Shown: one piece after another, positions 19,980 to 62,761 of the stretch
Numbering within the stretch: position 1 is the first letter of the stretch
Layout: every line of letters starts with the position of its first letter
Origin: Betaproteobacteria bacterium
GTDB taxonomy: Bacteria; Pseudomonadota; Gammaproteobacteria; Burkholderiales; SG8-41
Direction of reading: 5' to 3'
DNA length: 64,000 nucleotides
Assembly: GCA_016868035.1 (NCBI GenBank)
Contig: VGID01000017.1
Coordinates: forward strand, 430-64,429
Position numbers and translations under genes: made by a program
Notes under the pieces: generated by a model
Seen by the model: only the letters and a program-made list of their open reading frames with translations
Database searches by the model: none
Told to the model about the DNA's origin: nothing

Positions 19980-19999
19980 CCGTCAGCGTTCTGCTTACC

Positions 20000-20515: not shown

Positions 20516-20946
20516 GGGACTTCCTCGTGCTGCGCGTGGTGGCGAAGATCATGATGGCCTTCATGCTGCTGTTCGCTCTCTATGTACAGTTCCACGGCGA
20601 TTTCGGACCGGGCGGCGGGTTCCAGGCGGGCGTCATCGCCGCGGCCGCGATCATCTTCTACGCGATCATCTTCGGATTGCCCGCGGCGCGGAAAGTCGTG
20701 CCCGACCGGCTGGTCGAAGCGATGGTCGCGGCCGGCGTCCTGCTCTACGCCTCGGTGGGCGTGGCGGGAATGCTGCTCGGCGGAAACTACCTCGACTACT
20801 TCGTGCTGCACGCCGACCCCGTGGAAGGCCAGCACCGCGGCATCTTCTGGATCGAGGCCGGCGTGCTGATCACCGTGGCCGGCGTGATGCTGAAGGTGTT
20901 CTATCTCTTCGCCGGCCGACCCAGCGAGGACGAGGACGGGCAGTGA
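20512..20946 (+). CDS. mrpB: Mrp/Mnh antiporter subunit B
   Basis: GTGA overlap with the upstream gene. FALYVQFHGDFGPGGGFQAGVIAAAAIIFY is the MnhB core motif. Confidence 0.7.
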   Translation: MRDFLVLRVVAKIMMAFMLLFALYVQFHGDFGPGGGFQAGVIAAAAIIFYAIIFGLPAARKVVPDRLVEAMVAAGVLLYASVGVAGMLLGGNYLDYFVLHADPVEGQHRGIFWIEAGVLITVAGVMLKVFYLFAGRPSEDEDGQ

Positions 20947-21302
20947 ACATCGCGAGCCACTACAGCTACTGGGTCACCATGTTCCTCGTGATCGGGGGCC
21001 TGTACATCGTGATCGCCCGCGGCAACCTGGTGAAGAAGCTGATCGGGGTCGCGATCTTCCAGACCTCGGTCTATCTGCTCTACATCGCGCCGGGAAAGCT
21101 GATCGGCGGCACGGCGCCCATCATCACCGAGCAGTTCCAGGTCTATTCCAACCCGTTGCCGCACGTGCTGATCCTGACCGCGATCGTCGTCGGAATCGCG
21201 ACGCTCGCGCTCGGGCTCGCGCTCGTCGTGCGCATCCGGGAAGCCTACGGCAGCATCGAGGAAGACGAGATCCTCACCCGGGACCGGGACGGCGAACGTT
21301 GA
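20943..21302 (+). CDS. mrpC: Mrp/Mnh antiporter subunit C (NuoK-like)
   Basis: 119-aa three-TM protein, GGLYIVIARGNLVKKLIGVAIFQTSVYLLYI. 4-nt overlap with mrpB. Confidence 0.75.
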   Translation: MNIASHYSYWVTMFLVIGGLYIVIARGNLVKKLIGVAIFQTSVYLLYIAPGKLIGGTAPIITEQFQVYSNPLPHVLILTAIVVGIATLALGLALVVRIREAYGSIEEDEILTRDRDGER

Positions 21303-21321
21303 CCCGGCAGCGATACCCCGC

Positions 21322-24269: not shown

Positions 24270-24517
24270 TGCGCCGGCGAGGGCTTGCAGGCGGTGGAAC
24301 GGGCCGGCGATGGTGGATCGCTTTCGCCGCCGTTCTGGCGGCCGCCGTTGCGGCCGAAGCATGGGTCGTGCACGAAGCGCATTTCGATGTCGAGAGCGTG
24401 TTCGGTTTCAATGCCTGGTTCGCCTTGCTTGCCGCCGCCGGCGTGATCGGAATCGCCAGGCTGCTCGGCGGGCTGCTTGCGCGCCCGGACACCTACTACG
24501 AGGACCGGGATGACTAG
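24266..24517 (+). CDS. Small two-TM membrane protein of the Mrp-like operon (hypothetical)
   Basis: GTG 24266 or ATG 24269 overlaps the upstream TGA. It has two hydrophobic segments (WWIAFAAVLAAAVAAEAW, FNAWFALLAAAGVIGIARLLGGLL). Its stop TAG (24515-24517) lies in the CTAG at the MITE boundary. Confidence 0.45.
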   Translation: MMRRRGLAGGGTGRRWWIAFAAVLAAAVAAEAWVVHEAHFDVESVFGFNAWFALLAAAGVIGIARLLGGLLARPDTYYEDRDD

Positions 24518-24785
24518 AACCTATTTCATATATAGGCGCGTGATGCGTTGCGGCCAGGACGGAGCGGATGCAAGGCGCCCGACGAAGGCCATATGTCGAT
24601 ATGGTCCAGGAGGGCAACGACGCAGCCGGCCGTCCTGGCCGCAACCCGCAGGGACGGGGCGATCCGGGCGCATTTCTTCGTCGGGGACCCTCGAAATATC
24701 GACATATTCCTTCGGGCCCTCCCCCCTGAACTGCATCCCACATCGCCGCCGTCGCACACGTGCCTATGTATGAAATAGGTTCTAG
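24514..24785. mobile_element. 272-bp MITE-like non-autonomous element with ~29-bp terminal inverted repeats and CTAG at both ends
   Basis: Left end CTAGAACCTATTTCATATATAGGCGCGTG. The reverse complement of the right end is CTAGAACCTATTTCATACATAGGCACGTG (27 of 29 identical). The interior is an extended imperfect palindrome (for example CGAAGGCCATATGTCGATATGG versus CGAAATATCGACATATTCCTTCG). There is no transposase ORF. Conceptual removal restores an overlapping stop/start junction (see findings). Confidence 0.6.
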
Positions 24786-26463
24786 CCTCGCCCTCCATCC
24801 CGGCGTGTTTCTGATGGCCGGCGCAATCGTGATCGCGCTGACGCGGGGCGCAATCCGGAACGCGCTCGCCCTTCTGGCGCCGCTCGCCACGCTCTACCTC
24901 GTGTGGCAGGTTCCCGACGGGACGGCGGCGACCGTGCGGTTCCTCGACTTCGAGCTGGCGCCCCTTGCCGGCGGCAGGCTCTCGCGCCTGTTCGCCGTCG
25001 TTTTCGCGATCATGGCGGGCGGCGGAGCGCTGTATTCGCTGAAGCAGGAGCATCGGCTCGAACTCGCTGCCGCGCTGTTCTACGCGGGCGCGGCGATCGG
25101 CGTCGTATTCGCCGGGGACCTGATCACCGTCTTCGTGTTCTGGGAGCTGATGGCGATCGGCTCGACGCTCGTGATCTGGAGCGCGGGCACGCCCGCCGCC
25201 TACCGCGCCAGCCTGCGCTATCTGATGATCCACCTTCTGGGAGGCGCGTTGCTGATGGCGGGCATCGCGGGCCACGTCGCTCAAACGGGCTCGATCGCGT
25301 TCGAAGGCTTGAGCACCAACGCGCCCTCGCACTGGCTGATCCTGGCCGGATTCCTGCTCAACGCGGGGGCGCCGCCGCTGTCGGCTTGGCTGCCCGACGC
25401 TTATCCCCGCGCCTCGTGGAGCGGGATGGTGTTCCTTTCGGCGTTCACCACGAAGACCGCCGTCTATGTGCTGCTCCGCGGCTTCCCCGGCACCGAGGTC
25501 CTGGTCTACGTCGGGTTGTTCATGGCGTTCTACGGTATCGTCTATGCGCTGCTCGAAAACGACATGCGGCGCCTCCTCGCCTACTCGATCGTCAACCAGG
25601 CGGGGGTCATGGTGGCGGGCATCGGGCTCGGTACCGAGACCGCGCTGAATGGCGTGGCGGCGCACGCCTTCGCCAGCGTCCCCTACACGGCGCTGCTGCT
25701 GATGGCGGCGGGCGCCGTGCTGTACCGGACCGGCAAGCGTGAATGCGGCAGCCTCGGCGGGCTCGCCCGGAGCATGCCGGTCACCGCGCTGTGCGGGATC
25801 GTTGGCGCGCTCTCGATCTCCGCGTTTCCCTACACGTCCGGCTTCGTCAGCAAGACCATGATCTCGCAGGCCGCGGCCGACGGGCACCTGCTGTGGGTGT
25901 GGCTGCTGCTCGCCGCTGCCTCGGTCGGCGCGGTGCTCACCGCAGGCATGAAGTTCTGCTGGTTCGTGTTTTTCCACCGCGATTCGGGGCTGCGGCCGCC
26001 GGATGCGCCGCGCAGCATGCAGCTCGCGATGATCCTTTTTGCCGCGTCGTGCATCGGGGTCGGGATCTATCCCGATCCGCTGTATGCGGCGCTGCCGTAC
26101 CCCGTGCACTACCAGCCCTACACCGGTGCGCACGTCGTTGCCAAGCTGCAACTGCTGCTGTTCGCAGTACTGGTGTTCTTTCTGCTCCTGGGCTGGCTCA
26201 AGCCGGCGCGCACCATCACGCTCGATGTGGACTGGCTCTACCGGGTGTTCGGGCCCTGGCTGGCAGCCAGCGTATTGCACGGCTTGGCGCTGCTCGGCGG
26301 TCGTGGGGAGCAGAGGCTGCGGCAGGCAATGGATGCGGCGTGGAAAGGTCTGCAGCGGCATCACGGTCCCGAAGGCATCCTGGCGCGCACCTGGCCGACG
26401 GGAAGCATGGCGCTGTGGATGATGCTGTTGCTGCTCGCTTATTTGCTCTTTTACTACCTGTAA
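24760..26463 (+). CDS. Mrp antiporter subunit D/A-like (NuoL/M/N-like), copy 3; 5' end remodelled by the MITE insertion
   Basis: 567-aa polytopic protein with FWELMAIGSTLVIW, LSAWLPDAYPRASWSGMVFLSAFTTKTAVY and AYSIVNQAGVM. Candidate starts are GTG 24760 or ATG 24766 (both inside the MITE right end), GTG 24805 or ATG 24814. The true start is uncertain. Confidence 0.75.
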   Translation: MPMYEIGSSLALHPGVFLMAGAIVIALTRGAIRNALALLAPLATLYLVWQVPDGTAATVRFLDFELAPLAGGRLSRLFAVVFAIMAGGGALYSLKQEHRLELAAALFYAGAAIGVVFAGDLITVFVFWELMAIGSTLVIWSAGTPAAYRASLRYLMIHLLGGALLMAGIAGHVAQTGSIAFEGLSTNAPSHWLILAGFLLNAGAPPLSAWLPDAYPRASWSGMVFLSAFTTKTAVYVLLRGFPGTEVLVYVGLFMAFYGIVYALLENDMRRLLAYSIVNQAGVMVAGIGLGTETALNGVAAHAFASVPYTALLLMAAGAVLYRTGKRECGSLGGLARSMPVTALCGIVGALSISAFPYTSGFVSKTMISQAAADGHLLWVWLLLAAASVGAVLTAGMKFCWFVFFHRDSGLRPPDAPRSMQLAMILFAASCIGVGIYPDPLYAALPYPVHYQPYTGAHVVAKLQLLLFAVLVFFLLLGWLKPARTITLDVDWLYRVFGPWLAASVLHGLALLGGRGEQRLRQAMDAAWKGLQRHHGPEGILARTWPTGSMALWMMLLLLAYLLFYYL

Positions 26464-26727
26464 CCGGGCGCGGGGCCGGCCGCATTGCGAGCCACTTTGG
26501 TGCGCACGCATGGCACCCCTGGCACCGCCCGATTCGCGATCCGTAAGGGGGGATTAATTGTTGATTCGGCAAGGACTAGGGTATACCATTGTCAATACGT
26601 AGCAGGTCATCTCGAATCGTAAAATCCGACGGATATGCGCGAATCGCGGTGGATGTTGCTGCGCAACTTTCAGTATCATTGTCAGTTCGCTTCAGATGCA
26701 TCCCCCCACAACGCCAATGGAGGAACA

Positions 26728-27951
26728 ATGATCAAGAAACCAATCACGGCGGAGCCCGCCGACGTGAAACCGACATCTACGCGCCGCAAGTTTCTGATCG
26801 GGGCGGCGGCCGCTACCACGGTGGCGGCAATCGCGGGTTGCGCCAAGGAAGAGCCGCCCAAGCCGGTGGCGAAGGCACCCGAGCCCGCCAAGCCGGCAGC
26901 AGCGCCCGCGGTCGCCGTGAAGCCTACGGCGGTCGTGCTGAAGATGCAGGGTGCCTGGGGCGCCAAGGACATCTTCAACGAGATGGCCGAGGAGTACGTC
27001 AAGCGCGTCAACGACATGGCCGACGGGCGGTTGCGCATCGACTACCTCGTCGCGGGCGCAGTGGTGAAGCCGTTCGAGGTGATGGACGCGACCAACAAGG
27101 GCGTGATCGACGCTGCCCACAGCGTACCGGTGTACTGGTACGGCAAGAGCAAGGTGGCATCGCTTTTCGGCTCGGGACCGATCAACGGCATGGACGCGCA
27201 CCAGACGCTCGCCTGGATCTGGCGCGGCGGCGGAATTCAGCTCTACAACGAGTTGCTCCCCAAGCTGGGTCTGGACAACGTCGTAGGCTTCTTCGCGATG
27301 CCGATGCCGACGCAGCCGCTCGGCTGGTTCAAGAAGCCGATCAAGACCGCGGCCGATCTGAAGGGCCTCAAGTACCGCACCGTGGGCCTTGCCGCCGACC
27401 TCTTCCAGGAGATGGGCGCAAAGGTCACGCAGCTGCCCGGGGGCGAAATCATCCCGGCGCTCGAGCGCGGCGTGATCGACGCTTTCGAGTTCAACAACCC
27501 GACCTCCGACATGCGCTTCGGCGCGCAGGACGTGATCAAGAACTACATGATGGGCAGCTACCATCAGGCGATGGAGTTCTTCGAGATCGTCATCAACAAG
27601 AAGAAATTCCAGGCGCTGTCCAAGGACCTGCAGGCAGTCCTGCAGTACGCCGCCGAGGCCGCGAACTCGTCGAACTACTGGACCGCGATGGACAATTATT
27701 CTCGCGACCTGCAGGATCTGATCAACAAGCACAAGGTGAACGTGAGCCGCACGCCGCAGAGCATCATGGTCGAGCAGTTGAAGGCGTGGGACGGCCTCAC
27801 CAAGAAGCTCTCGGACGAGGACCCCTTCTTCAAGAAGGTGGTCGAATCGCAGCGCGCGTTTGCCAAGCGCGTTGCCTATTACGTGTGGCTGAACGAGGCG
27901 GACTACAAGCTCGGCTACGAGCACGTGTTCAAGGTCAAGATCCCGAGCTGA
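26728..27951 (+). CDS. TRAP transporter substrate-binding protein (COG4663-like) with Tat-type signal
   Basis: RBS ggagg then ATG 26728. Twin-arginine signal STRRKFLIGAAAATTVAAIAG followed by a Pro/Ala-rich linker, then VLKMQGAWGAKDIFNEMA..YWYGKSKVASLFGSGP. Confidence 0.85.
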   Translation: MIKKPITAEPADVKPTSTRRKFLIGAAAATTVAAIAGCAKEEPPKPVAKAPEPAKPAAAPAVAVKPTAVVLKMQGAWGAKDIFNEMAEEYVKRVNDMADGRLRIDYLVAGAVVKPFEVMDATNKGVIDAAHSVPVYWYGKSKVASLFGSGPINGMDAHQTLAWIWRGGGIQLYNELLPKLGLDNVVGFFAMPMPTQPLGWFKKPIKTAADLKGLKYRTVGLAADLFQEMGAKVTQLPGGEIIPALERGVIDAFEFNNPTSDMRFGAQDVIKNYMMGSYHQAMEFFEIVINKKKFQALSKDLQAVLQYAAEAANSSNYWTAMDNYSRDLQDLINKHKVNVSRTPQSIMVEQLKAWDGLTKKLSDEDPFFKKVVESQRAFAKRVAYYVWLNEADYKLGYEHVFKVKIPS

Positions 27952-27980
27952 GTGGGCCGTCAGTATTGATCGTACTGACC

Positions 27981-28012
27981 GGGGTGGCGCGGTGAGCGCC
28001 GCCCCGTTTTTT
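27981..28012 (+). terminator. Rho-independent terminator/attenuator between the TRAP binding-protein and permease genes
   Basis: GGGGTGGCGC-GGTGA-GCGCCGCCCC (10-bp stem with one G-U pair) followed by GTTTTTT. Confidence 0.6.
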
Positions 28013-28044
28013 CGTGCAGTGCGCTGGGGCGCCAGAGGGGCGAC

Positions 28045-28647
28045 ATGATCAACCGATTCATCTACGGCGTCGACCAGCTGAGCAAGTCGATCGGCCACGC
28101 CTTCGCGTGGTGCATCATGATCCTCACCATGGGCACCTGCTACGAGGTGTTCATGCGCTACGTGCTGAACGCGCCGACCTCCTGGGCGTTCGACATGAGC
28201 TACACGTGGTATGGCGCCATGTTCTTCATGGCGGGGGCATACGCTCTCTCGCGCAACGGCCACGTGCGCTGCGACATGTTCTACCGGCTGTGGCGGCCGC
28301 GCAACCAGGCGGCCGTTGAGCTCGTGCTCTACATCCTCTTTTTCTTTCCCGGCATCCTGGCGCTGGCGTACGCGGGCTGGGGCTACGGCATCGCCTCGAT
28401 GAAGATCCTCGAGGTGAGCGTGAACAGCCCGGCGGGCGTGCCGATCTGGCCGCTCAAGATGCTGATTCCGTTCGGCGCGGGGCTGCTTGCGCTGCAGGGC
28501 GTGGCCGAAGTGCTGCGCTGTCTCCAGTGCCTGCGCGACGATTCCTGGCCGCCGCGCCTGCATGACGTCGAGGAGCTGGAAAAACAGTTGATCGCGGAGC
28601 ACGCGGCGGCCGAGGCGCGGCAAGCGCAGGAAGGGGGTGCGCGATGA
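28045..28647 (+). CDS. TRAP transporter small permease subunit (DctQ-like)
   Basis: 200 aa with four TM helices. GHAFAWCIMILTMGTCYEVFMRYVLNAPTSWAFDMSY is typical of the family. Overlaps the large permease gene by 4 nt. Confidence 0.8.
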   Translation: MINRFIYGVDQLSKSIGHAFAWCIMILTMGTCYEVFMRYVLNAPTSWAFDMSYTWYGAMFFMAGAYALSRNGHVRCDMFYRLWRPRNQAAVELVLYILFFFPGILALAYAGWGYGIASMKILEVSVNSPAGVPIWPLKMLIPFGAGLLALQGVAEVLRCLQCLRDDSWPPRLHDVEELEKQLIAEHAAAEARQAQEGGAR

Positions 28648-29990
28648 GCGACCCTGTGATCGCCCTCATCATGCTCGGGATCCTGGTCTTCACGATCATG
28701 ATCGGGTTCCCCGTCGCCTTCACGCTGATGGCGCTGGGAGTGGGATTCGGCTACTACGCGTACTACGTTCCGGATCAGGCTTTCTTCGACAGCCGCGTGT
28801 TCTACCTGCTCACGCAGAACACCTTCACCGTGCTCAACAGCGACGTGCTGGTGGCGGTGCCGCTGTTTCTCTTCATGGGCTACATGGTCGAGCGCTCGAA
28901 CATCCTCGACAAGTTGTTCTACAGCGTGCAGCTTGCGCTCCGGCGCATTCCCGGCTCGCTCGCCATCGCGACGCTCGTCACCTGCGCGATGTTCGCGACC
29001 GCGACCGGCATCGTCGGCGCGGTGGTAACGCTGATGGGGCTCCTCGCCTTTCCCCAGATGCTCAAGGCCGGCTACGATGTGCGGCTCGCCTCGGGGGTGG
29101 TGTGCGCCGGCGGCTGCCTCGGAATCATGATTCCGCCTTCGATCCTGCTGATCGTGTATGGCGCGATGGCCGGGCTATCGGTGGTCCAGCTCTACGCCGC
29201 GGCGTTATTGCCAGGCTTCCTGCTCGCCGTGATGTATATTGTCTTCGTCATAATCCTGGCGTTATTCAGGCCGAAGCTCGCACCGTCCTTGCCGAAGGAG
29301 GACGCCACGATTCCCGTCGCAAGGGTATTGCTGCTTCTGGTAACTTCGTTCGTTCCGCTGGCGGTGATGATCCTGTGCGTGCTGGGCGCGATCATGTTCG
29401 GGCTGGCGACGCCAACCGAGGCGGCCGCGGTCGGCGCTTTCGGCGCCATCTTGCTCTCGGCGGCCTACGGGGCGTTTCGCTGGGGAAGGCTGAAGGAATC
29501 GGTGTTCCTCACCGCGCGCACTTCCGCGATGGTGTGCTTTCTCTTCGTCGGCTCGGCGACGTTCGCGGGCGTTTTCAGCTACCTCGGCGGCGAGGGCATC
29601 ATCAAGACGTTCGTGCTGAGCCTCGATCTCAATCCGATCACGTTCCTCATTGTCTCGCAGTTCATCATCTTTCTGCTCGGCTGGCCGCTGGAATGGACCG
29701 AGATCATCATCATCTTCGTGCCGATCTTCCTGCCGCTGCTGTCCCACTTCAACATCGACCCCTTGCTCTTCGGCATCCTGGTCGCGTTGAACCTGCAGAC
29801 CGCGTTCCTGTCGCCGCCGATGGCGATGGCGGCCTACTACCTGAAGGGCGTCACGTCGAAGAATATACTGATCACCCAGATCTTCTGGGGCTGCATACCG
29901 TTCCTGTGCATCGTGGTCGTCTCGATGGTGGTGGTCTACGTGTATCCGGATATTGCGCTGTGGCTGCCGCGCGCGATCTACGGCAACTGA
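28644..29990 (+). CDS. TRAP transporter large permease subunit (DctM-like)
   Basis: 448-aa polytopic protein. LVAVPLFLFMGYMVERS, TGIVGAVVTLMGLLAFPQMLKAGY and GIMIPPSILLIVYG are typical. Confidence 0.9.
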   Translation: MSDPVIALIMLGILVFTIMIGFPVAFTLMALGVGFGYYAYYVPDQAFFDSRVFYLLTQNTFTVLNSDVLVAVPLFLFMGYMVERSNILDKLFYSVQLALRRIPGSLAIATLVTCAMFATATGIVGAVVTLMGLLAFPQMLKAGYDVRLASGVVCAGGCLGIMIPPSILLIVYGAMAGLSVVQLYAAALLPGFLLAVMYIVFVIILALFRPKLAPSLPKEDATIPVARVLLLLVTSFVPLAVMILCVLGAIMFGLATPTEAAAVGAFGAILLSAAYGAFRWGRLKESVFLTARTSAMVCFLFVGSATFAGVFSYLGGEGIIKTFVLSLDLNPITFLIVSQFIIFLLGWPLEWTEIIIIFVPIFLPLLSHFNIDPLLFGILVALNLQTAFLSPPMAMAAYYLKGVTSKNILITQIFWGCIPFLCIVVVSMVVVYVYPDIALWLPRAIYGN

Positions 29991-31362: not shown

Positions 31363-31545
31363 ATGGTCCTCAAGATTGTCACCGGAATCATAGCGGTGCT
31401 CTTGCTGCTCGGTTTCGCGGTTCCGTATGTGCTCAAGATGAAGGACATCGCGCTCAGCATCGTCGTCGTGGCCGGGCTGTGCCTGATGTTGTGGGACCTC
31501 TGGGGGTCCCTGCGCGAGGACGGGGACAGCGACAAGGGCGGTTGA
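31363..31545 (+). CDS. Small hypothetical two-TM membrane protein (60 aa)
   Basis: RBS agggag 7 nt upstream of the ATG. Two hydrophobic helices (IVTGIIAVLLLLGFAVPYVL, IALSIVVVAGLCLMLWDLW). No family recognised. Confidence 0.4.
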   Translation: MVLKIVTGIIAVLLLLGFAVPYVLKMKDIALSIVVVAGLCLMLWDLWGSLREDGDSDKGG

Positions 31546-51673: not shown

Positions 51674-52152
51674 TCGCCTCGCGCCCGCGGACACGATGGG
51701 CATGGCTCGGAGCAGCGTTCGCGCTGTGCGCGCTGCTCCCGGCGCTCGCGCAGGCGCCGCTGCCGGGGACGCGGACGATCGCAACCAAGCACTCCTTCGA
51801 GGCTTTGGTCGCACGCGTGGAGCAGGCGGTCGATAAGCACGGCATGGCGGTGGTTGCCCACGCGAGCGCGAGCTCCGGGGCCGCATCACGCGGCATCAAG
51901 ATCCCCGGCAATGCGGTGATCATGGTGTTCCGCAACGACTACGCCGTGCGCATGCTGCAGGCGAGCGTGCCGGCGGGCATCGAGGCGCCGCTGCGAATCC
52001 ACGTGACCGAAACTCCCGGCGGCCGCGCCACGCTGACCTATCGGGAGCCGAGCGCGGTGTTCGCGCCCTACGCAAGCCCGGCGCTCGATGCCGTGGCAAA
52101 GGAGCTGGATGTCGTATTCCGCAACATCGTCCGCGACGCGGCCGGCGGCTGA
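51670..52152 (+). CDS. DUF302 domain protein with signal peptide
   Basis: ATGA overlap with the upstream gene. Signal peptide ..LCALLPALAQA. FEALVARVEQAVDKHGMAVVAH...GNAVIMVFRNDYAVRML..EAPLRIHV is typical of DUF302. Confidence 0.8.
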   Translation: MIASRPRTRWAWLGAAFALCALLPALAQAPLPGTRTIATKHSFEALVARVEQAVDKHGMAVVAHASASSGAASRGIKIPGNAVIMVFRNDYAVRMLQASVPAGIEAPLRIHVTETPGGRATLTYREPSAVFAPYASPALDAVAKELDVVFRNIVRDAAGG

Positions 52153-52165
52153 GCGCGCCGGTGGT

Positions 52166-53308
52166 ATGGCGCCGGCGCGCGCGCAGCGCGGCGTGCTGGC
52201 GGCGGCGCTCGCGCTCGCGGTCGTGATCCTCGTGCTGATCACGGGCGCGGGCTGGCGCATGCCCGTGTTGTTCGCATTGGGCATCGCGCTCGGACTCACG
52301 CTCTATCTCACCGGGTTCGGTTTTACCTCGTCGTACCGCGAATTGCTTGTGCATCGCAACGTCGCTGCGGTGAAGGCGCAGCTGGTGATGGTGGCGCTCG
52401 CTACCGTGCTGTTTGCGCCGGTGCTCGCGGGCGGCTCGGTCTTCGGGCAACCGGTGGCAGGAGCGCTGGCCCCCGCGGGCGTGCCGGTGGCGATCGGTGC
52501 CTTTCTCTTCGGGCTGGGCATGCAACTCGGCGGCGGCTGCGGCTCGGGAACGCTCTACACCGCGGGCGGGGGCAGTCCGCGCATGCTGGTGGTGCTCGCC
52601 GCGTTCTGCGCGGGCGGCTTCTGGGCGAGCCTGCACATGCAGTGGTGGGACCGCCTGCCCGCAGCGCCCGATGTCGCGCTGTCCGACCTGCTCGGCTGGC
52701 CGGGCGCGGTCGCGCTGCAGCTCGGCGTGCTGGCGGTGTTGTGGCTTGCGCTCGGCCGGGTGGCGCGTCGCGGGGCGCGTTCGACCCAGGACGTGCCCTC
52801 GTTCCTGGCGCAGCGCCATTTCTGGCTGGCGGGCGCGATCGCACTCGCGCTGCTGAACTTTTCCGTGCTGCTTGCCGCGGGCCACCCGTGGACCATCACC
52901 TGGGCGTTCACTCTCTGGGGCGCCAAATCGGCGCGCGGGCTGGGATGGGATCCGGAGTCGGCGCCGTTCTGGAGCGGCGACTTCCAGCGCACGGCGCTCG
53001 AAGGCGGCGTGCTGCAGGACGTCACCTCGGTGATGGACATCGGCATCATGATCGGCGCGCTGGCGGCGGCGGGTCTCGCGGCGCGTTTCCGCCCGCAATT
53101 CACGGTGCCGATGCGATCGCTGCTCGCCGCGGTCGTTGGCGGGCTGCTGATGGGTTATGGGGCGCGCGTCGCCTTCGGATGCAACATCGGCGCGTTTTTC
53201 TCGGGTGTGGCATCCACCAGCCTGCACGGGTGGATGTGGATCTTCGCGGCGCTCGCGGGCACCTGGTTCGGAATAAGGATGAGGCCATGGTTCGGACTGA
53301 AAAATTGA
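52166..53308 (+). CDS. YeeE/YedE-family membrane protein (putative thiosulfate/sulfur-compound transporter)
   Basis: ATG 52166 within ORF 52088-53308. Two half-repeats carry the Cys motifs LGGGCGSGTLY and AFGCNIGAFF that are characteristic of YeeE/YedE. Confidence 0.8.
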   Translation: MAPARAQRGVLAAALALAVVILVLITGAGWRMPVLFALGIALGLTLYLTGFGFTSSYRELLVHRNVAAVKAQLVMVALATVLFAPVLAGGSVFGQPVAGALAPAGVPVAIGAFLFGLGMQLGGGCGSGTLYTAGGGSPRMLVVLAAFCAGGFWASLHMQWWDRLPAAPDVALSDLLGWPGAVALQLGVLAVLWLALGRVARRGARSTQDVPSFLAQRHFWLAGAIALALLNFSVLLAAGHPWTITWAFTLWGAKSARGLGWDPESAPFWSGDFQRTALEGGVLQDVTSVMDIGIMIGALAAAGLAARFRPQFTVPMRSLLAAVVGGLLMGYGARVAFGCNIGAFFSGVASTSLHGWMWIFAALAGTWFGIRMRPWFGLKN

Positions 53309-55791: not shown

Positions 55792-56880
55792 TCATCCCGT
55801 CTCGAGCGGCAGCCGCACCGCCTGCCCAGTGCGCGCGGAGCGCTCGATCGCGAGCGTCGTTTCCAGGTTGATGCGCGCCTGCTCGGGCGTGGTGTGCGCG
55901 GTGGGCTGTCCGGTCACGAGGTGGTCGAGCCACGCGCGGGTCTCGTTGCCGATCGGGCCCCAGAACTCGCCCACCGCCCAGTCTCCCGCGGTATTGCTTC
56001 CCAGGAACGCCAGGTTGACCTGGTGGTCCGGAACGTAGGGATGGGGAATGCCTTTTTCGCTGTAGAGCAGGTGGTCCATGTGATCGTCGTCGATGATCAT
56101 CGTGCCCTCGGCCCCGAGCAGCTCGACCCGGTCGGACTGGCCGAGGGTCGGGTATTTCTCGGGCAGCGCGTAGCTCACACCCAGGTTGATGACGGCGCCG
56201 TCGGCGAAGGTGACGAGCGCCCAGGTGACGTCCGGAGCGCTGTAGCCCCTGCTCTTGAACAGCCCCGACTGGCCGCGCGCGACCACCTCGACCGGGCGGT
56301 TGCCTTCGAGGAACCAGCACATGAGATCCACGTAGTAGGTGAGCACGTCCATCACCGGGGTCGCGTGGGGATCGCGCTTGAGTATCGCGAACGCCTGCGC
56401 GCGGGTGTTGTAGACGCGCGCGAGCCCGCCCACTACCTTGCCGAGCTGCCCGTGCAGCATCTGCTCCTTGGCACGGAGAAAGCATTCCTTGAAGCGGCGG
56501 CTGTATCCGATCCGCAGGATTCCGTCGGTGCGCCGGAGCGTCGCGAGGATGTCATCGGCGTCCTCGAGCGTGAGCGCCAGCGGCTTTTCCACCAGCACGG
56601 CCTTGCCCAGCTCGAGCGCCCTGCGCACCGGCTCGGCGTGCTGGCCCTCGGGAGTGGAGACGAACACCGCGCTCACTTCCGGGCGTTCGATGACCTCGAG
56701 GTTGTCGCCCGAATGGAGATCGGCGCCCGCCACTTCGGCCAGCGCGCGCGCGCGCCGGGGATCGAGATCGGAGACGGCGAGAAAACCGACCGCCGGGTGC
56801 CTGGCAGCGAGGCGCGCGCGCAACGTGCCGATGCGTCCGGCGCCGACCACCGCGATGCCGAGCCCCTTACGCTCTTTCAT
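55792..56880 (-). CDS. Gfo/Idh/MocA-family oxidoreductase
   Basis: LGIAVVGAGRIGTLRARL (Rossmann fold) and VLVEKPLALTLEDAD are typical of the family. Confidence 0.85.
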   Translation of the reverse strand: MKERKGLGIAVVGAGRIGTLRARLAARHPAVGFLAVSDLDPRRARALAEVAGADLHSGDNLEVIERPEVSAVFVSTPEGQHAEPVRRALELGKAVLVEKPLALTLEDADDILATLRRTDGILRIGYSRRFKECFLRAKEQMLHGQLGKVVGGLARVYNTRAQAFAILKRDPHATPVMDVLTYYVDLMCWFLEGNRPVEVVARGQSGLFKSRGYSAPDVTWALVTFADGAVINLGVSYALPEKYPTLGQSDRVELLGAEGTMIIDDDHMDHLLYSEKGIPHPYVPDHQVNLAFLGSNTAGDWAVGEFWGPIGNETRAWLDHLVTGQPTAHTTPEQARINLETTLAIERSARTGQAVRLPLETG

Positions 56881-57293
56881 TTTTCGCTCCCGGCCCTGTC
56901 AAGAAAAGCGTCAACGCGAGTCGGCGTTTCCTGCGTGCTGCCGCGCGCGACGTCGGCCACCGGAAAGAAGCACAGCAGCATCAGCGGCTCGGCGCCGGTG
57001 TTGCGCGTGACGTGCATTTCGCCCGGCGGGATCAGGATCGCGTCGCCCGCCTTGAGCGCGTATTCGCCGCTGTCGGCGTGCGTCGTGCCCGCGCCCGAGA
57101 GCACGTAGATGCATTCCTCGAAATCGTTGTGCCGGTGCGGCCCGCGCGGGGTGTCGCCCGGCCCGGGCACGGGTATTTCCACCAGCCGCAATGTCACGGC
57201 CCGCGAGCCGCTCTCGCCCGATACGAACTCGAGCGAGGTGCGGCCGGGCAGTCCGAGATTCCGGGCGTCCGCCCGCGTGACCCTGCGCGCCAT
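56877..57293 (-). CDS. Cupin-domain protein
   Basis: The ATG (57293-57291) shares one nt with the stop of the upstream creatininase gene. PHRHNDFEECIYVLSGAGT...GDAILIPPGEMHVTRN is a cupin_2 motif. The longer ORF to 57674 overlaps the neighbouring gene. Confidence 0.75.
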   Translation of the reverse strand: MARRVTRADARNLGLPGRTSLEFVSGESGSRAVTLRLVEIPVPGPGDTPRGPHRHNDFEECIYVLSGAGTTHADSGEYALKAGDAILIPPGEMHVTRNTGAEPLMLLCFFPVADVARGSTQETPTRVDAFLDRAGSEK

Positions 57294-58090
57294 CAGCTCG
57301 CCACTTTCAGGTGCTTCATCTCGGCCGTGCCGCCCTGCTCCTCGTCGAGCAGCCGGAAGATCTCGGTTGCTTCCTTCGCGATGGCGTCGGCGATCGCCTC
57401 GAGCATGCGCCTGCCCTTCTCCACGGTCGCGTGATCGGGGCTGCCGTACCATCCGGTCGGGGCGATCGTCCGGATGTCGCGCAGCACCGGCTGATAGCTG
57501 CGCGTGCGGCGCAGCTTGTCCCACTTGCGCCCGCGCGCCTGGTCCGAGGAGTGCTCGATGCGCTCCAGGTGCACGAGGTCGGGGCGGCAGGCGAGCACCG
57601 CGAGGGCCTCGATCTCGCCGCCGTGCGTGAGCCCGCCGCACTCGTGTCCGAAAAGCTCCGCGGCGACATAGCATGCCTGCACCGTGAGCACCGTCATGCC
57701 GTGCTCGCGGTGGAGCCGCTCGGCGGCGATCGCGAGCGAGGGAATGTTGCCCTCGTGCCAGTTGAGGATAAGCAGGTAGCGCGCGCCGTGCTGGGCGGTC
57801 GAGACGCAGGTCTCGGTCACGACGCGCTGGTAGGTATCGGGCGTGAGCGTGATCGTGCCTTCGAACGGCATGTGCATCGGGGTGACCCCGAGGGGGCCTC
57901 CCGGGAGCACGAGGGCGTCCATGCGCTCGGCCACCGCGTGCGCGATCACGTTGGCCGCGAAGATGTCGGTGCCGGCCGGGAGATGGGGCCCGTGCTGCTC
58001 GACGCTGCCCGCGGGCAGAACCACCAGCGGGTTCTTTTTCAACTGTGCGGCGATCTCCGGCTGCGTGAGATCGACGAAATATCGGCTCAT
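57293..58090 (-). CDS. Creatininase-family (creatinine amidohydrolase-like) protein
   Basis: VVLPAGSVEQHGPHLPAGTDIF, LILNWHEGN and THGGEIEALAVL are typical of the creatininase/FAPy deformylase family. Confidence 0.85.
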   Translation of the reverse strand: MSRYFVDLTQPEIAAQLKKNPLVVLPAGSVEQHGPHLPAGTDIFAANVIAHAVAERMDALVLPGGPLGVTPMHMPFEGTITLTPDTYQRVVTETCVSTAQHGARYLLILNWHEGNIPSLAIAAERLHREHGMTVLTVQACYVAAELFGHECGGLTHGGEIEALAVLACRPDLVHLERIEHSSDQARGRKWDKLRRTRSYQPVLRDIRTIAPTGWYGSPDHATVEKGRRMLEAIADAIAKEATEIFRLLDEEQGGTAEMKHLKVAS

Positions 58091-58097
58091 AAATCCG

Positions 58098-58125
58098 GTG
58101 AATCGTGAATGGTGAATCGTGAATC
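58098..58125. repeat. 4 x 7-bp tandem repeat (GTGAATC/GTGAATG) directly upstream of the creatininase gene start
   Basis: GTGAATC GTGAATG GTGAATC GTGAATC, beginning 8 nt from the start codon of the minus-strand gene. Confidence 0.8.
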
Positions 58126-58178
58126 GAAGAACCTGTCCTGTTTTTCAGCGTTTTGCGGTCCGATTAGTGCTTCTAGTT

Positions 58179-58214
58179 ATCGCTCATCGGCGTTTATCGG
58201 CGTTCATCGGCGGT
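58179..58214. repeat. ATCGGCG-type decamer array, second copy of the 32624-32653 motif
   Basis: ATCGCTC ATCGGCGTTT ATCGGCGTTC ATCGGCGGT. Positions 58185-58214 match 32624-32653 at 29 of 30 nt. Confidence 0.7.
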
Positions 58215-58249
58215 TGCATTGATGCTCGACGATTATCGAGGCGACGAGC

Positions 58250-59341
58250 TCACGCGGCATGGCGCGCGCTCGCGCCGACCCTGCCCGCGGCCTCCTCCAT
58301 GACCTCGGAGAGCTTTACGTACTGGCCGCTGCGCTCGACCGACTTCAGCGCGGCGTAGACCACCGCGACAGCGACGTTGCCGTTGTGCGCGTTCAACTCG
58401 CCCGGCTTGCCGGTGCGGCAGCTCGCGGCGAACATCTCCAGCTCCGCGCGGAACATGTCGCTCTCGGGGATCCTGATCTCCTCGCGCTTGCCGTAGCCGT
58501 CCTTGCCGCGCTGGATGTAGAGCGTGGAGGCCGTGTGCAGCAGGTGGGGGGTGTCCCACGTGCCGAAGTCGATCTCGTAGTGCATGAGGCCCTTCTGGCC
58601 GAACACGCGCACGCAGAACACGCCCGGAGACGTCCAGCACGAGCCGACATATCCCACCTTGCCGTCGGCGAACCTGAGGAGCGTCATGGACTGGTCGTCC
58701 ACCTCGGCGCCCACGGGGGAGAGCTTCGATGCCATCGAGGAGACTTCCCGGATTTCGCCCCCCAGCAGGTGCAGCACGTCGAACTGGTGGATCGCGAGCT
58801 GCGAGAGCGGGCCGCCCGGCGCCCGGTCCTTGTACCAGCGCCAGGTCTGCGGCGTGAGCTCGAGCGCGCGCTCGTTGGAGAAATTCGCTTCCAGAAACGC
58901 GATGCGGCCGAGCTCCCCCTTGTCGATACTCTGCTTGATGAGGCGGATGCCCGCCATCAGCCGCGCGCTGTGGCCGACGGTGACCGTGATGCCGTGCTGC
59001 TTCTCGAGCGCGGCGATCCTGAGGCCGTCCTCGAGCGTCTGGGCAATGGGCTTCTCGGTATAGACGTGCTTCTTCGCCTTCGCCACCTCTTCGGCGAGCG
59101 GGTAGTGCTGCTCGTTGGGCACCGTCAGGATCACGCCCTTCACCTCGGGATCGGCGAGCAGGGTCTTGAGGTCGGGCGCGGCCGGCACTCCGAATTCCTT
59201 CTCGAACGCGGCGCGTTTTTCCTCGGAGCGGCTGTAGGCGGCGACGATCTTCACCTCACCGGACTTCTGCACGGCGCGGGTGAGCACTTTCGCCCACCGA
59301 CCGAGGCCGACGATTCCTACCCTGACGGGGGACTGACTCAC
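58250..59341 (-). CDS. Gfo/Idh/MocA-family oxidoreductase
   Basis: VRVGIVGLGRWAKVLTRAV (Rossmann fold) and VYTEKPIAQTLEDG, plus a C-terminal alpha/beta domain. Confidence 0.85.
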   Translation of the reverse strand: MSQSPVRVGIVGLGRWAKVLTRAVQKSGEVKIVAAYSRSEEKRAAFEKEFGVPAAPDLKTLLADPEVKGVILTVPNEQHYPLAEEVAKAKKHVYTEKPIAQTLEDGLRIAALEKQHGITVTVGHSARLMAGIRLIKQSIDKGELGRIAFLEANFSNERALELTPQTWRWYKDRAPGGPLSQLAIHQFDVLHLLGGEIREVSSMASKLSPVGAEVDDQSMTLLRFADGKVGYVGSCWTSPGVFCVRVFGQKGLMHYEIDFGTWDTPHLLHTASTLYIQRGKDGYGKREEIRIPESDMFRAELEMFAASCRTGKPGELNAHNGNVAVAVVYAALKSVERSGQYVKLSEVMEEAAGRVGASARHAA

Positions 59342-59472
59342 GGGGCGATTCCTGGCTGGTCCTGCAAAAACGGGATTCTACACCGGGCCCGCCCGATCGT
59401 CCGGCTCGGCGTATGCGCTCGTTGGTGATGATCTAGAATGGAACGCGGCAGCGACGACGACAGGAGGTTTTC

Positions 59473-60039
59473 ATGGCACGCATCAGTTATGTGGATCCCG
59501 GGACCATCCGGGATCCCCAGATCCGGAGGTGGCTCGAGGAGGCGATCTCGGCCGGCCGGCCCGGTCCCGAGAATCAGGCGATCCGCGCGCACCAGCCGGA
59601 CGTGATGCGCTCGTTCACGCTTACGCGCGAGATGCTCTTCGACAACGGCGCGGGCGTGGTCGAGCCGGATTTGAAGGAGCTGCTGCGTGCGTACGTTGCC
59701 TTCACCGTCGAGTGCGGCTACTGAAGCAACCAGGGAACCGCGCGGTCCGCGCGGGAAGCCGGCAGCCGCATGGTGGAGCTCATGGGATACGAGAAGTCCG
59801 GGCGTTTCACGCGCCGCGAGAAGGTCGCGCTGCGCTACGCCGACGCGATCATGTACGATCCCGCGCAAGCCGACGACCCGTTGTGGGCGGATCTGCACGC
59901 CGAGTTCACGGAGCCGGAGCTGGTGGAGCTCGGCTACTGGGTCGGCTTCACCTTCGGCGGGCAGCGCTGGCTGAAAACGCTCGCCGCGAAGCAGGGCGAG
60001 CTCGCCGAGTTCCTCGCGCAAAAAAAAGCGGGCGCCTAG
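59473..60039 (+). CDS. Carboxymuconolactone decarboxylase / AhpD-like family protein with in-frame TGA at the CxxC position: candidate selenoprotein (CGYU), alternatively a nonsense pseudogene
   Basis: ORFs 59473-59724 and 59770-60039 are in the same frame, separated only by TGA 59722-59724. Read through, the sequence is ..LKELLRAYVAFTVECGY[TGA]SNQGTARSAREAG..FTRREKVALRYADAIM.., which stays colinear with the family pattern ..CxYCxxxHTxxARxAG..FTxxERAALxxAEA... Strong RBS acaggagg upstream. Confidence 0.6.
59730..59762 (+). promoter_or_regulatory. SECIS-like stem-loop downstream of the in-frame TGA
   Basis: Lower stem CC(A)GG/CCGG and an internal loop. The upper stem is CCGCGC(G)/(C)GCGCGG (59738-59754) with an apical GGUCC loop. 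The G-U of the loop sits at +24/+25 from the U of UGA. Confidence 0.45.
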
Positions 60040-60047
60040 GCGCCCGC
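60020..60047 (-). terminator. Rho-independent terminator for the minus-strand Bug gene, embedded in the last codons of the plus-strand CMD gene
   Basis: GCGGGCGCC-TA-GGCGCCCGC (9-bp arms). On the minus strand it is followed by T8 (A8 at 60020-60027). It lies 56 nt past the Bug gene stop. Confidence 0.65.
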
Positions 60048-60102
60048 CTGCGTCTTCCGGTCCGGACGGAAAGGCGCGATCGCCCTCCCGGTCGCACGGA
60101 GC

Positions 60103-61080
60103 CTATTCAGGCTGCAGGCCGGCGGCTTTCGCGACCTTGCCCGTATCGATGAGTTCCTTCTGCACGTACTTGCGGAACTCCTCCGGCGTGCTCGTCGTGA
60201 TGAGCACGCCCTGTTCCTCCAGTCGCTTCTTCGTTTCCGGCGCATTGACGACCTTGATCGTCGCCGCGCGCAGCTTGGCGAGAATCGGCTTCGGCGTGCC
60301 CTTGGGAGCGAGAAGCCCGAGCCAGCCGCTATAGGTGAATCCGGGTATGGTGTTCACGATCGGCGGGATGCCTTCGACGACAGGCGAGTTGTTCGGCAGG
60401 CTTTGCCCCAGCACGCGCAGCCTCCCGGCCTTGATCTGGGCCATGTTCGCGGGTGCGGGCCCCACCGCCCACGAGGCTTCCCCGGAGATGACCGCAGCGA
60501 CTAGCGGGCCACCGCCCTTGTACGGCACGTGCACGGAGTCGAGCCCCGCCAGCATCGCGAACTTTGCTCCCGCAAAATGGCTCTGCGAACCGGTGCCGGC
60601 GGAACCCATGTTGATCTTGCCGGGATTCGCCTTGATCCAGTCCACAAACTCCCGGACCGTCTTGGCTGGCGTCTTCGGGTTCACGACGAGCACGTTCGGC
60701 GTGATGCCGACGAGCGTGATGAATTCGTAGTCCTTGATCGGATCGTACGGCAGCTTCTTGACGATATGGGGCCGGATGGTCATGGCTGCCGTGGATGCCC
60801 AGATCAGCGTGTACCCGTCCGCAACGGCGAGCTTGCCGATCTCCATGCCGATCGCGCCACCCGCGCCGCCGCGATTGTCCACGACGAGCTGTTGCGCGAC
60901 CGCCTCGCTCATCGCCGTCGCGTAGATGCGCCCCGTGACGTCGACCGACGCGCCCGGCGTGTTGGGGATGATGAAGCGGACGGGCTTGTCGGGGTAGTTT
61001 TTGGCAGGGTCCGCTGCGAGCCCCGGGCCCGCGGACACGAGCAGCGCCAGCGCGCTCAAAAGAAGCTGGTGCGTTTTCAT
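60103..61080 (-). CDS. Tripartite tricarboxylate transporter substrate-binding protein (Bug/TctC family)
   Basis: ATG at 61080. Signal peptide MKTHQLLLSALALLVSAGPGLA. YPDKPVRFIIPNTPGASVDVTGR, VVDNRGGAGGAIG, GSAGTGSQSHFAG and VHVPYKGGGP. Confidence 0.9.
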   Translation of the reverse strand: MKTHQLLLSALALLVSAGPGLAADPAKNYPDKPVRFIIPNTPGASVDVTGRIYATAMSEAVAQQLVVDNRGGAGGAIGMEIGKLAVADGYTLIWASTAAMTIRPHIVKKLPYDPIKDYEFITLVGITPNVLVVNPKTPAKTVREFVDWIKANPGKINMGSAGTGSQSHFAGAKFAMLAGLDSVHVPYKGGGPLVAAVISGEASWAVGPAPANMAQIKAGRLRVLGQSLPNNSPVVEGIPPIVNTIPGFTYSGWLGLLAPKGTPKPILAKLRAATIKVVNAPETKKRLEEQGVLITTSTPEEFRKYVQKELIDTGKVAKAAGLQPE

Positions 61081-62172: not shown

Positions 62173-62761
62173 ATGAACGAAAAACAACGGGCACAGGCGA
62201 ATCGGGATCGCAGGCGTATCCGAAGCTTTGTAGCGGCGGTCGGGGCGGCGAGCTTGTGGTGCTGCGCCGCCGCTCTCGCCGCCGAGCAGCGTTCGTACGG
62301 GGGGGGAGGCTCGCGACTGGAACATCGCGCCCACGACGGTGCTGCGCACTTCCGAATACCATGCGCCGACGCCGCGGGAGATTCCGGGCGGGCGGGTCGT
62401 GAGGACGCTCGAGCTCGTCGCCATGCTCGGGAAGGGGCCGCGGCCCTACCTGATCGACGTGCTCGGCGGCGGCGTGCACCGCACGATCGCCGGAGCATTC
62501 TGGCTGGCCGGCGCCGGCGCGGGCGACATGAGCGCGGAGGAGCAGCGGCGCTTCGACCGGGCGCTGGGCAACTTCGCGGCCGGTGACAAGGGCAGGCCGC
62601 TCGTTTTCTTCTGTTCCGACGCTCAGTGCTGGCTTTCGTACAATGCGGCGCTGCGCGCGATCGCGGCCGGCTACACCAACATCATGTGGTACCGCGGCGG
62701 CATCGCCGCCTGGCACCACGCCGATCAACCAATGCAGCAATCGGAACCCTTCGCCTGGTAG
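62173..62761 (+). pseudogene. CXXCW-motif rhodanese-like periplasmic protein (PQQ-catabolism-associated family) split by a frameshift in a G8 tract
   Basis: The signal peptide MNEKQRAQANRDRRRIRSFVAAVGAASLWCCAAALAA is in frame 1 (from ATG 62173). The domain DWNIAPTTVLRTSEYHAPTP...PLVFFCSDAQCWLSYNAALRA..WYRGGIAAW is in frame 2 and ends at 62761. The frames meet at GGGGGGGG (62299-62306). Deleting one G gives one continuous ~195-aa ORF. Confidence 0.6.

Follow-up and report, generated by a model that had tools for sequence, protein, structure and literature searches.

We analysed a stretch of 64,000 nucleotides (nt) of the Betaproteobacteria bacterium assembly GCA_016868035.1 (contig VGID01000017.1, positions 430 to 64,429 of the forward strand), hereafter called the window, which contains a gene of the AhpD/CMD superfamily with an in-frame TGA as a candidate selenocysteine (Sec) codon. 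A single frame of the forward strand holds two open reading frames (ORFs), 59473-59724 (83 amino acids, aa) and 59770-60039 (89 aa). The list of ORFs and the translation confirm what the first-pass annotation of this DNA had noticed, that TGA 59722-59724 is the sole stop between them; the 15 codons from the TGA to the second ATG are open. Translation through the TGA gives 188 codons terminated by TAG 60037-60039, with the product MARISYVDP...TVECGY-TGA-SNQGTARSAREAGSRMVEL...QKKAGA-TAG. The single CMD-fold protein of about 188 residues that had been expected from read-through is borne out by this length and by the AhpD-core fold of an AlphaFold2 model. Coordinates of all features are collected in Table 1.

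The 83-aa product is on record on 21 contigs. Four fetched contigs from four samples are 99.97-100% identical to the window over 2.9-3.9 kb, and the gene, including the TGA, is 100% identical in four independent assemblies (SRR16108675, SRR16108673, SRR7985589 and JGI 3300020220). In each of them gene callers give products of 83 aa and 85 aa. Both fragments are present in public protein collections, where NCBI nr has the 83-aa and 89-aa versions; the locus is thus mis-annotated by standard callers, as had been foreseen. TGA is the ordinary stop of 31 of the 43 other predicted genes in the window, and therefore the codon has not been globally reassigned.

The position of the TGA coincides with the second cysteine of the C-x-Y-C motif, as the first-pass annotation had stated and as an alignment of 26 sequences confirms. 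In a larger alignment of 203 sequences the same column is occupied by Cys in all 120 full-length homologs that carry no TGA (the Cys forms, as opposed to the TGA-bearing Sec forms). All 203 sequences share the first Cys, the Tyr preceding the Sec position and the Gly at +4. The family motif is C-x-Y-[C/U]-x-x-[Q/Y]-G, with Gln or Tyr at +3 and Gly at +4 in 203/203.

A search of 5.8 billion clustered proteins recovered 590 homologs. The best of them are full-length Cys forms of 185-196 aa with 55-64% identity, and the best ones bearing organism names come from Acidimicrobiia metagenome-assembled genomes (MAGs). The alignment is best conserved in the C-terminal half of the protein. Several Cys homologs and a window-type C-terminal fragment are named 'alkylhydroperoxidase family enzyme' by JGI, which we take to be the name of COG2128, and some Cys homologs have a precomputed match to Pfam PF02627. 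The AlphaFold2 model is all-helical (predicted local distance difference test 84.8, predicted template modelling score 0.80). When it was compared with the PDB by Foldseek, the top 36 matches were all AhpD-core or CMD proteins with template modelling (TM) scores of 0.55-0.69, among them 2prr, 3c1l, 6ohj and 6k40 with 0.66-0.69. The sequence-profile search matched Bmp8, the nearest solved structure (E 4e-7), PA0269 and Atu0492. The model thus has an AhpD-core fold.

The same TGA was found in many other genomes. The DNA pattern K-E-x-x-R-[AG]-Y-[IV]-5x-C-x-Y-TGA, back-translated from the invariant residues around the site, carries about 44 bits, with about 0.1 chance matches expected per collection by our information-content estimate. 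It matched 71 metagenome contigs and 42 species-representative genomes, all 42 of which are MAGs. All 113 matched loci are true orthologs, and in nearly all of them the frame is open for 95-115 codons beyond the TGA and highly conserved. None of the loci comes from the genome of the window itself: the best DNA identity of any locus to the window is about 84-86%; one locus in a Burkholderiales MAG (L080) also has the upstream genes. Synteny and similarity place the source of the window within the Burkholderiales. Approximately 27 of the 42 MAGs are labelled Burkholderiales, Betaproteobacteria, Proteobacteria or Bordetella, and 14 are labelled Acidobacteriota, Terriglobia, Terriglobales or Acidoferrum. 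The genes themselves form two Sec types, the Burkholderiales type of the window (...ECGY-U-SNQGTARSAR...) and the Acidobacteriota type (...SMSC[SG]Y-U-[AS]xQG[TI]AQ[GA]AR...).

Two of the MAG labels look unreliable. L109 (CAZXNF010000522.1) is a 2.9-kb contig binned as Streptomycetaceae whose gene is of the Burkholderiales type, the same type as in the metagenome locus L007. L110 (CAMDLH010000074.1) belongs to a MAG labelled 'Bordetella parapertussis', and its gene is also of the Burkholderiales type.

The strength of selection was estimated as the ratio of nonsynonymous to synonymous substitution rates (dN/dS; median pairwise values by the method of Nei and Gojobori) for 57 distinct Burkholderiales-type and 30 distinct Acidobacteriota-type genes. 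In the 53 codons before the TGA it equals 0.061 and 0.038, respectively, in the 95 codons after the TGA 0.122 and 0.091, and in codons +20 to +95, that is, past the hairpin described below, 0.104 and 0.075. The dS values are 1.0-1.5 across the gene, near saturation. A dN/dS of about 0.1 after the TGA at nearly saturated dS is not compatible with a pseudogene, and these comparisons indicate that the region past the TGA is translated and is under purifying selection. The first-pass annotation had proposed to look in orthologs either for a conserved column or for decay; what is found is a column of TGA (113 loci, open and under selection) or Cys (120/120 Cys forms).

Average linkage clustering of the 203 sequences with the Sec column omitted, which is cruder than a true phylogeny, separates the 83 Sec forms from the 120 Cys forms without exception at k=2. 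The former group then splits into 54 sequences of the Burkholderiales type and 29 of the Acidobacteriota type. The median identity between the two Sec types is 63%, and their median identity to the Cys forms is 57% (Burkholderiales type) and 53% (Acidobacteriota type). No Cys form above 64% identity to the window protein was found among the 5.8 billion clustered proteins, and thus Sec appears to be fixed in this clade. The position and the core sequence of the hairpin are common to both Sec types. These observations fit a single origin of the Sec form that may then have spread across two phyla.

The hairpin begins 13 nt past the TGA. Its 5' arm (59738-59744) and 3' arm (59748-59754) form a stem of 7 base pairs closed by the loop GUC (59745-59747), so that the loop begins 20 nt past the UGA and, with numbering from the U of UGA (+1), its G and U occupy +24 and +25. 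The first-pass annotation had read the same apical GGUCC with G-U at +24/+25, within an extended stem-loop starting 6 nt after the TGA. The upper, GC-rich part of that structure stands, as it is paired in related genes and covaries. The lower part (alignment columns 15-19 with 44-47) was rejected: it is present in the minimum free energy (MFE) structure of the window, but is paired in just 63% of cells. A 3-base-pair mini-stem including the UGA, suggested by RNAalifold (columns 6-8 with 16-18), was also rejected, being too small and confounded by the conserved Gln codon.

In an alignment of 61 segments (58 distinct), the 7-base-pair stem is paired in 97.8% of cells. Four of the seven pairs have changes on both sides: columns 23-39 (C-G/U-A), 24-38 (C-G/U-A/A-U), 27-35 (G-C/C-G) and 29-33 (G-C/A-U/G-U). 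Extended to nine pairs (columns 21-29 with 33-41), the stem has a covariation score of 0.166, compared with 0.083 in shuffles, none of 500 of which reaches the observed value; slid registers score at most 0.066. More variants with compensated pairs occur in the genome loci, for example ACUGCGC...GCGCAGU in Acidobacteriota and ACAGCGC...GCGCUGG. As the closing pair can be dispensed with, the loop reads GUC/GGG/GGC or GGUCN/AGGGU, and the G at column 30 is nearly invariant.

The synonymous positions in the stem are frozen. The normalised synonymous entropy of codons +5 to +11 is 0.13, compared with 0.65 elsewhere in the Burkholderiales type and 0.68 in the Acidobacteriota type. Within the stem, Ala +6 is GCG in 57/57 genes, Arg +7 is CGG in 55/55, Ala +9 is GCG in 57/57 and Arg +10 is CGG in 49/49; outside the stem three or four codons are in use for Ala and Arg. 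The 5' arm falls on the codons for the family-wide G-x-A-R and the 3' arm on those for S-A-R, the latter in a region where the Cys forms vary and the model is least confident (residues 81-100); the element was thus built in a tolerant loop. This hairpin is absent from the homologous place in the three Cys-form genes examined (L114, L115 and L117).

In the loop of the selenocysteine insertion sequence (SECIS) of E. coli fdhF the corresponding bases are G23 and U24. The likeness is that of a hairpin within the coding region just past the UGA, with G and then U in the loop about 23-25 nt from the U of UGA. The differences are in the stem sequence, in the loop, which is GUC/GGUCC in the window type and GGG/AGGGU in the Acidobacteriota type, and in the bulged U, which is not evident in the window hairpin.

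The published consensus of bacterial SECIS (bSECIS) elements has a loop of 3-9 nt, a stem of 4-16 base pairs, a G within the first two loop positions, a distance of 16-37 nt from the UGA and an MFE of at most -7.5 kcal/mol (PMC13188914, Fig. 2 legend). The window element agrees with it in all respects (7 base pairs, GUC, 20 nt, -13.5 kcal/mol), as do 76 of 81 distinct orthologous segments in our own implementation, so that the bSECIS test proposed at the outset favours the element. Four of the five failing segments contain the conserved hairpin sequence and have an alternative fold as MFE structure; in the fifth, L104, the stem is weakened to 5 contiguous base pairs (-5.4 kcal/mol). The loops GGUCC and AGGGU match the N1-G-[G/U]-N-N2 pattern of the published bSECIS model (PMC13188914). 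On the evidence of these alignments we regard the hairpin as a selected RNA structure of the bSECIS type.

Taken together, these data make it very probable that one gene, 59473-60039, encodes a thiol-selenol oxidoreductase of 188 residues with an AhpD/CMD fold, and that its codon 84, UGA, is decoded as Sec. We infer the insertion of Sec itself, the presence of selABCD in the genome and the catalytic role of the protein. By analogy with the established bacterial pathway, the hairpin 59738-59754 would present its G-containing apical loop about 20 nt downstream as the ribosome nears the UGA. The SelB.GTP.Sec-tRNA(Sec) complex would bind the apical loop and, competing with release factor 2, bring Sec to the A site, after which translation would run on through 104 codons. 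By homology, Sec84 would replace the second, nucleophilic Cys of the AhpD-type C-x-x-C, and Cys81 and Sec84 may cycle between a selenol/thiol pair and a selenenylsulfide, reducing a substrate. The candidate substrates are a peroxide, a disulfide or another electrophile; the choice is left open because of the missing His, the closeness to Bmp8 and the links to transporters, all considered below.

Several observations weigh against this interpretation. Firstly, the window sequence alone is weak evidence for the hairpin, which is not clearly above chance there. The 21-mer folds at -13.5 kcal/mol with z = -2.75, but z is only -0.2 to -1.2 in contexts of 33-76 nt, and in the 76-nt context the MFE structure is a different fold. 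The 64-kb window with 68% G+C contains 43 perfect 7-base-pair hairpins with loops of 3-5 nt, and no Rfam match overlaps 59722-59760, even at E up to 10. The significance of the hairpin therefore comes from the comparison with other sequences. Secondly, the frame is broken at other places of the gene in about 5 of the 113 loci: L036 and L066 lose it past the hairpin, and L028/L040, L032 and again L066 within the N-terminal part. The TGA and the hairpin are intact in all of them, and the disruptions are either metagenome assembly errors or occasional decayed copies.

Thirdly, the protein stays below the cut-offs of the curated family models. The Pfam CMD model (PF02627) gives 22.0 bits against a cut-off of 23 (E 1.6e-4) and covers residues 42-99 only; NCBIfam NF053654, 'YciW-related (seleno)protein', gives 49.7 bits against 310, and TIGR01926, 'peroxidase-related enzyme', 24.8 bits against 81.8. 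The Acidobacteriota type scores 44.9 bits with NF053654 and 33.4 bits with TIGR01926. Of the C-x-x-C-x-x-x-H motif of AhpD the Cys pair is retained, whereas an invariant Gly stands in place of the His; as the His after CxxC is absent, AhpD-like chemistry is suggested by homology. Finally, neither the 64-kb window nor related loci totalling about 0.8 Mb yielded selA, selB, selD or tRNA-Sec, and no formate dehydrogenase or second selenoprotein candidate was found in the window or the fetched loci. The machinery was searched for with ARAGORN (window and loci), motif scans for SelA, SelB and SelD, Pfam and NCBIfam models on 43 window proteins and checks of ORFs in the gaps; these negatives cover the window and the fetched loci and say nothing on the remaining genome.

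Two other explanations accept a natural UGA and do without Sec, and we give each of them a very small probability. One is a split protein: translation would stop at the UGA and restart at AUG 59770, the hairpin would serve termination-reinitiation, and the chains of 83 aa and 89 aa would assemble into the AhpD-like fold. Indeed, a purine-rich GGGAAG lies upstream of this AUG, and the Met at Sec+16 is invariant in all 87 distinct Sec forms (57 + 30), whereas the aligned residue is variable (L/K/M/R) in the Cys forms. Since the Arg/Lys codon just before Met100 varies synonymously, the constraint looks to be either on the amino acid or on the AUG proper, a possible restart codon. However, the 15 codons from the UGA to the AUG, which would be untranslated in such a case, keep the family motif S-N-Q-G-x-A-R seen also in the Cys forms, the protein would lack its catalytic second Cys, and the sequence of the hairpin loop and its spacing match the SECIS consensus.

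The other is read-through independent of a SECIS, in which a near-cognate tRNA (Trp or Cys) would decode the UGA at some frequency without selenium. UGA is the leakiest of the stop codons, and no Sec machinery was found in the window or the fetched loci. On the other hand, such read-through, to which we assign much the same slight probability, leaves unexplained the covarying hairpin, the loop G and the fixed spacing in two phyla. Nor does it explain why the codon is never TGC or TGT in the clade, though Cys would be the functional residue.

A pseudogene is still less probable, and is refuted by the comparison of orthologs. A recent nonsense mutation from TGC to TGA in a Cys-type AhpD-like gene, with the downstream part untranslated, would need a one-base change, annotation pipelines do call two short ORFs, and a few related loci (L036, L066) are frameshifted. 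However, the same TGA is present in 113 loci of two phyla at dS of about 1 (saturated), the 95 downstream codons have dN/dS of about 0.1, there is no close relative with Cys, and no overlapping gene was seen on another frame or strand that could explain the downstream conservation. Least probable of all, to a degree that is practically negligible, is a TGC/TGT codon misread at a single base in sequencing or assembly, an explanation which has in its favour only the prior that single-base errors happen and is contradicted by the identical gene and TGA in four independent assemblies from different samples and by the same TGA in 113 further loci.

Table 1. Features of the candidate selenoprotein locus. 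Positions refer to the window unless another locus is named.
Feature	Position	Strand	Evidence
Shine-Dalgarno-like AGGAGG, 5 nt upstream of ATG	59462..59467	+	sequence reading
Predicted selenoprotein gene, 188 codons (Sec = codon 84) + TAG; AhpD/CMD-fold 'alkylhydroperoxidase family enzyme' (COG2128-type)	59473..60039	+	translation, homologs, model, orthologs
Redox motif C81-G-Y-U84 (TGC GGC TAC TGA)	59713..59724	+	alignments
In-frame UGA, putative Sec codon	59722..59724	+	71 metagenome loci, 42 genome loci, four identical assemblies
Candidate bacterial SECIS core, stem CCGCGCG/CGCGCGG, loop GUC (or 6-base-pair stem, loop GGUCC)	59738..59754	+	covariation, consensus
Met100 codon, 16 codons past the Sec codon; gene callers' start for the second 'ORF'	59770..59772	+	invariant in Sec forms
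Intrinsic-terminator-like hairpin (10 pairs) + T-run	60026..60049	-	weak Rfam terminator-like matches, same place
Convergent neighbour, TctC/Bug-family periplasmic solute receptor	60103..61080	-	Pfam PF03401, 200.7 bits
dctA after the predicted selenoprotein gene, Acidobacteriota-type loci	L005:6854-8206; L097:5597-6853	+; -	

Upstream of the candidate gene lies a divergent minus-strand cluster (55792-59341) that encodes two GFO/IDH/MocA oxidoreductases with a creatininase-family amidohydrolase between them. The neighbouring GFO protein had no exact match on record. The convergent gene of the TctC/Bug receptor is followed by a gene for a patatin-like lipase. The minus-strand terminator-like hairpin overlaps the last codons and the TAG of the candidate gene, and it probably terminates the TctC gene. 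A convergent TctC homolog at a distance of at most 600 nt is present in 21 of the 45 Burkholderiales-type loci with enough downstream sequence. However, such receptors are very numerous in Burkholderiales, and thus this link is rather weak.

In loci of the Acidobacteriota type, the gene for the C4-dicarboxylate transporter dctA directly follows in approximately 30 of 40 cases. Its start overlaps the stop of the candidate selenoprotein gene by 4 nt (GTGA) or comes 2-3 nt later; the dctA product of L097 scores 540 bits, the cut-off of NF002461 being 513. This arrangement looks like an operon with translational coupling and suggests a link to C4-dicarboxylate uptake. The neighbourhoods of Cys forms that were examined have no consistent neighbour gene.

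The remainder of the window is ordinary betaproteobacterial chromosomal content, and nothing mobile or phage-like was seen in it. It contains a cluster for a Mrp-type multisubunit cation/proton antiporter (18890-26463), a TRAP (DctPQM) transporter operon (26635-29990), a phasin gene and genes for two GGDEF-EAL proteins and two universal stress proteins. A gene at 62339-62761 (+) encodes a rhodanese-domain protein whose best NCBIfam match, with 119.6 bits, is 'PQQ-dependent catabolism-associated CXXCW motif protein' (cut-off 128); it is weakly similar to rhodanese-type selenoprotein families and has no in-frame TGA. Only one other in-frame TGA of the window, 31543-31545, has coding-like composition on both sides. 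It was rejected as a Sec codon, since it is the ordinary stop of an amidase gene and is followed, four codons on and without a change of frame, by the start of a 2-hydroxyacid dehydrogenase gene. A scan of the loci for further candidates gave ordinary gene junctions only.

In the locus L114 (GCA_900093715.1), beside the Cys-form homolog, gene calling breaks a GRDB-family gene (Pfam PF07355; 3557-4623 of L114, minus strand) into three pieces. An in-frame TGA within ...LVPG-TGA-PMCH..., a UxxC motif, makes the first of these breaks. The gene probably encodes a further selenoprotein and has been cut apart by annotation.

Few groups are richer in Sec-decoding genomes than Betaproteobacteria, and selenoproteins are known from Acidobacteria too (PMC1794560). 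A 2006 report named FdhA as the sole selenoprotein family in Alpha- and Betaproteobacteria (PMC1794560). At 52088-53308 (+) the window itself has a gene for a membrane protein of the YeeE/YedE family (Pfam Sulf_transp, 209.6 bits). Among the NCBIfam models the best match is 'selenium metabolism membrane protein YedE/FdhT', with 139.7 bits against a cut-off of 350. This is at most a faint hint at selenium use, as the protein may equally be a thiosulfate-type transporter.

AhpD-like selenoproteins with a CxxU motif were described as early as 2005, by Zhang, Gladyshev and co-workers, and the class is thus an established one, as the first-pass annotation had stated. The Sargasso Sea data of 2005 contained an 'AhpD-like protein' (COG2128) with 27 CxxU sequences (PMC1088965), and the Global Ocean Sampling data of 2008 contained 'AhpD-like 1' with 299 CxxU sequences and 'AhpD-like 2' (Pfam PF02627) with 70 sequences (PMC2398784). 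CMD domain-containing or CMD-like selenoproteins have been described as well (PMC1088965, PMC13188914), as have a distant AhpD homolog (NF041047) and an AhpD-related protein (NF041238) (PMC13188914). A 2026 review lists the COG2128 AhpD-like family with TIGR01926 (PMC13188914).

The window gene probably works in the same way and belongs to the same superfamily, but is below every curated cut-off tested. It shares with the AhpD-like (COG2128) family the fold and the Sec position, the second of C-x-x-C, as well as widespread Cys homologs and a bSECIS directly downstream (PMC1088965, PMC2398784, PMC13188914). On the other hand, the TIGR01926 score places it outside that curated subfamily. The best NCBIfam match, NF053654 (GroundWater_YciW; residues 1-157 of 188, E 3.5e-13), is flagged as having Sec and Cys forms and, by its score, is a related family and not the same one. 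The known AhpD-like members come mainly from marine metagenomes, Clostridia and Deltaproteobacteria, whereas the window clade comes from Burkholderiales and Acidobacteriota in freshwater- and soil-type samples. We found no literature linking an AhpD-type selenoprotein to Betaproteobacteria, Burkholderiales or Acidobacteriota in a search that did not extend to BSepDB.

The solved AhpD-core structures (2prr, 3c1l, 2gmy, PA0269 2ijc/7xw1 and 6k40) have the same all-helical fold (TM 0.58-0.69, probability 1.00) and a C-x-x-C-type motif at the equivalent place, with only 14-25% identity to the window protein. In PA0269 (C-A-Y-C-V-N-M-H) a His stands four residues past the second Cys, where the window family, C-x-Y-[C/U]-x-x-Q-G, has the invariant Gly. 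M. tuberculosis AhpD (1gu9) is a weak match (E 3.7, TM 0.40). The tetrabromopyrrole debrominase Bmp8 (6ohi/6ohj), a CMD-fold protein that uses a Cys pair for reductive dehalogenation, is similar to the window protein in size (about 190 aa), fold (TM 0.68) and the C-x-Y-C motif. However, the identity is 15%, and the His at +3 past the second Cys of Bmp8 is absent from the window family. No halogen-related genes were found near the window gene, and a dehalogenase role for its product is speculation.

The clade of the window gene is possibly an uncurated subfamily. A broader claim would be that the Sec clade, with C-x-Y-U-x-x-Q-G and without the AhpD His, forms a subfamily outside the curated models and catalogues, has been horizontally shared together with its SECIS between Burkholderiales and Acidobacteriota, and is tied to carboxylate uptake (dctA, TctC). 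We consider this combination doubtful.

For annotation, the consequences are direct. At least 113 public loci, including the 42 species-representative MAGs, and the NCBI nr record of the window present the gene as two short hypothetical ORFs or fragments. As the gene stays below the cut-offs of all NCBIfam and Pfam models, pipelines that depend on such models will go on missing it, and a dedicated model would repair the split records. The locus is also a clean example of a SECIS within a coding region, whose 3' arm lies in a variable surface loop with frozen synonymous sites. The finding is useful for annotation and would not surprise a selenoprotein specialist; the understanding of Sec decoding as such is unchanged.

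For the organism, the finding implies that the Burkholderiales host decodes UGA as Sec, as the first-pass annotation had also suggested. It would add a selenoprotein of the thiol-oxidoreductase type to Betaproteobacteria, where FdhA was the sole family reported in 2006 (PMC1794560). For the family, the coupling with dctA in Acidobacteriota is a functional lead. If the link between the Sec clade and carboxylates holds, the protein would more probably be a selenium-dependent enzyme acting on an imported organic acid or on a Bmp8-like electrophile, and not an AhpD of peroxide defence.

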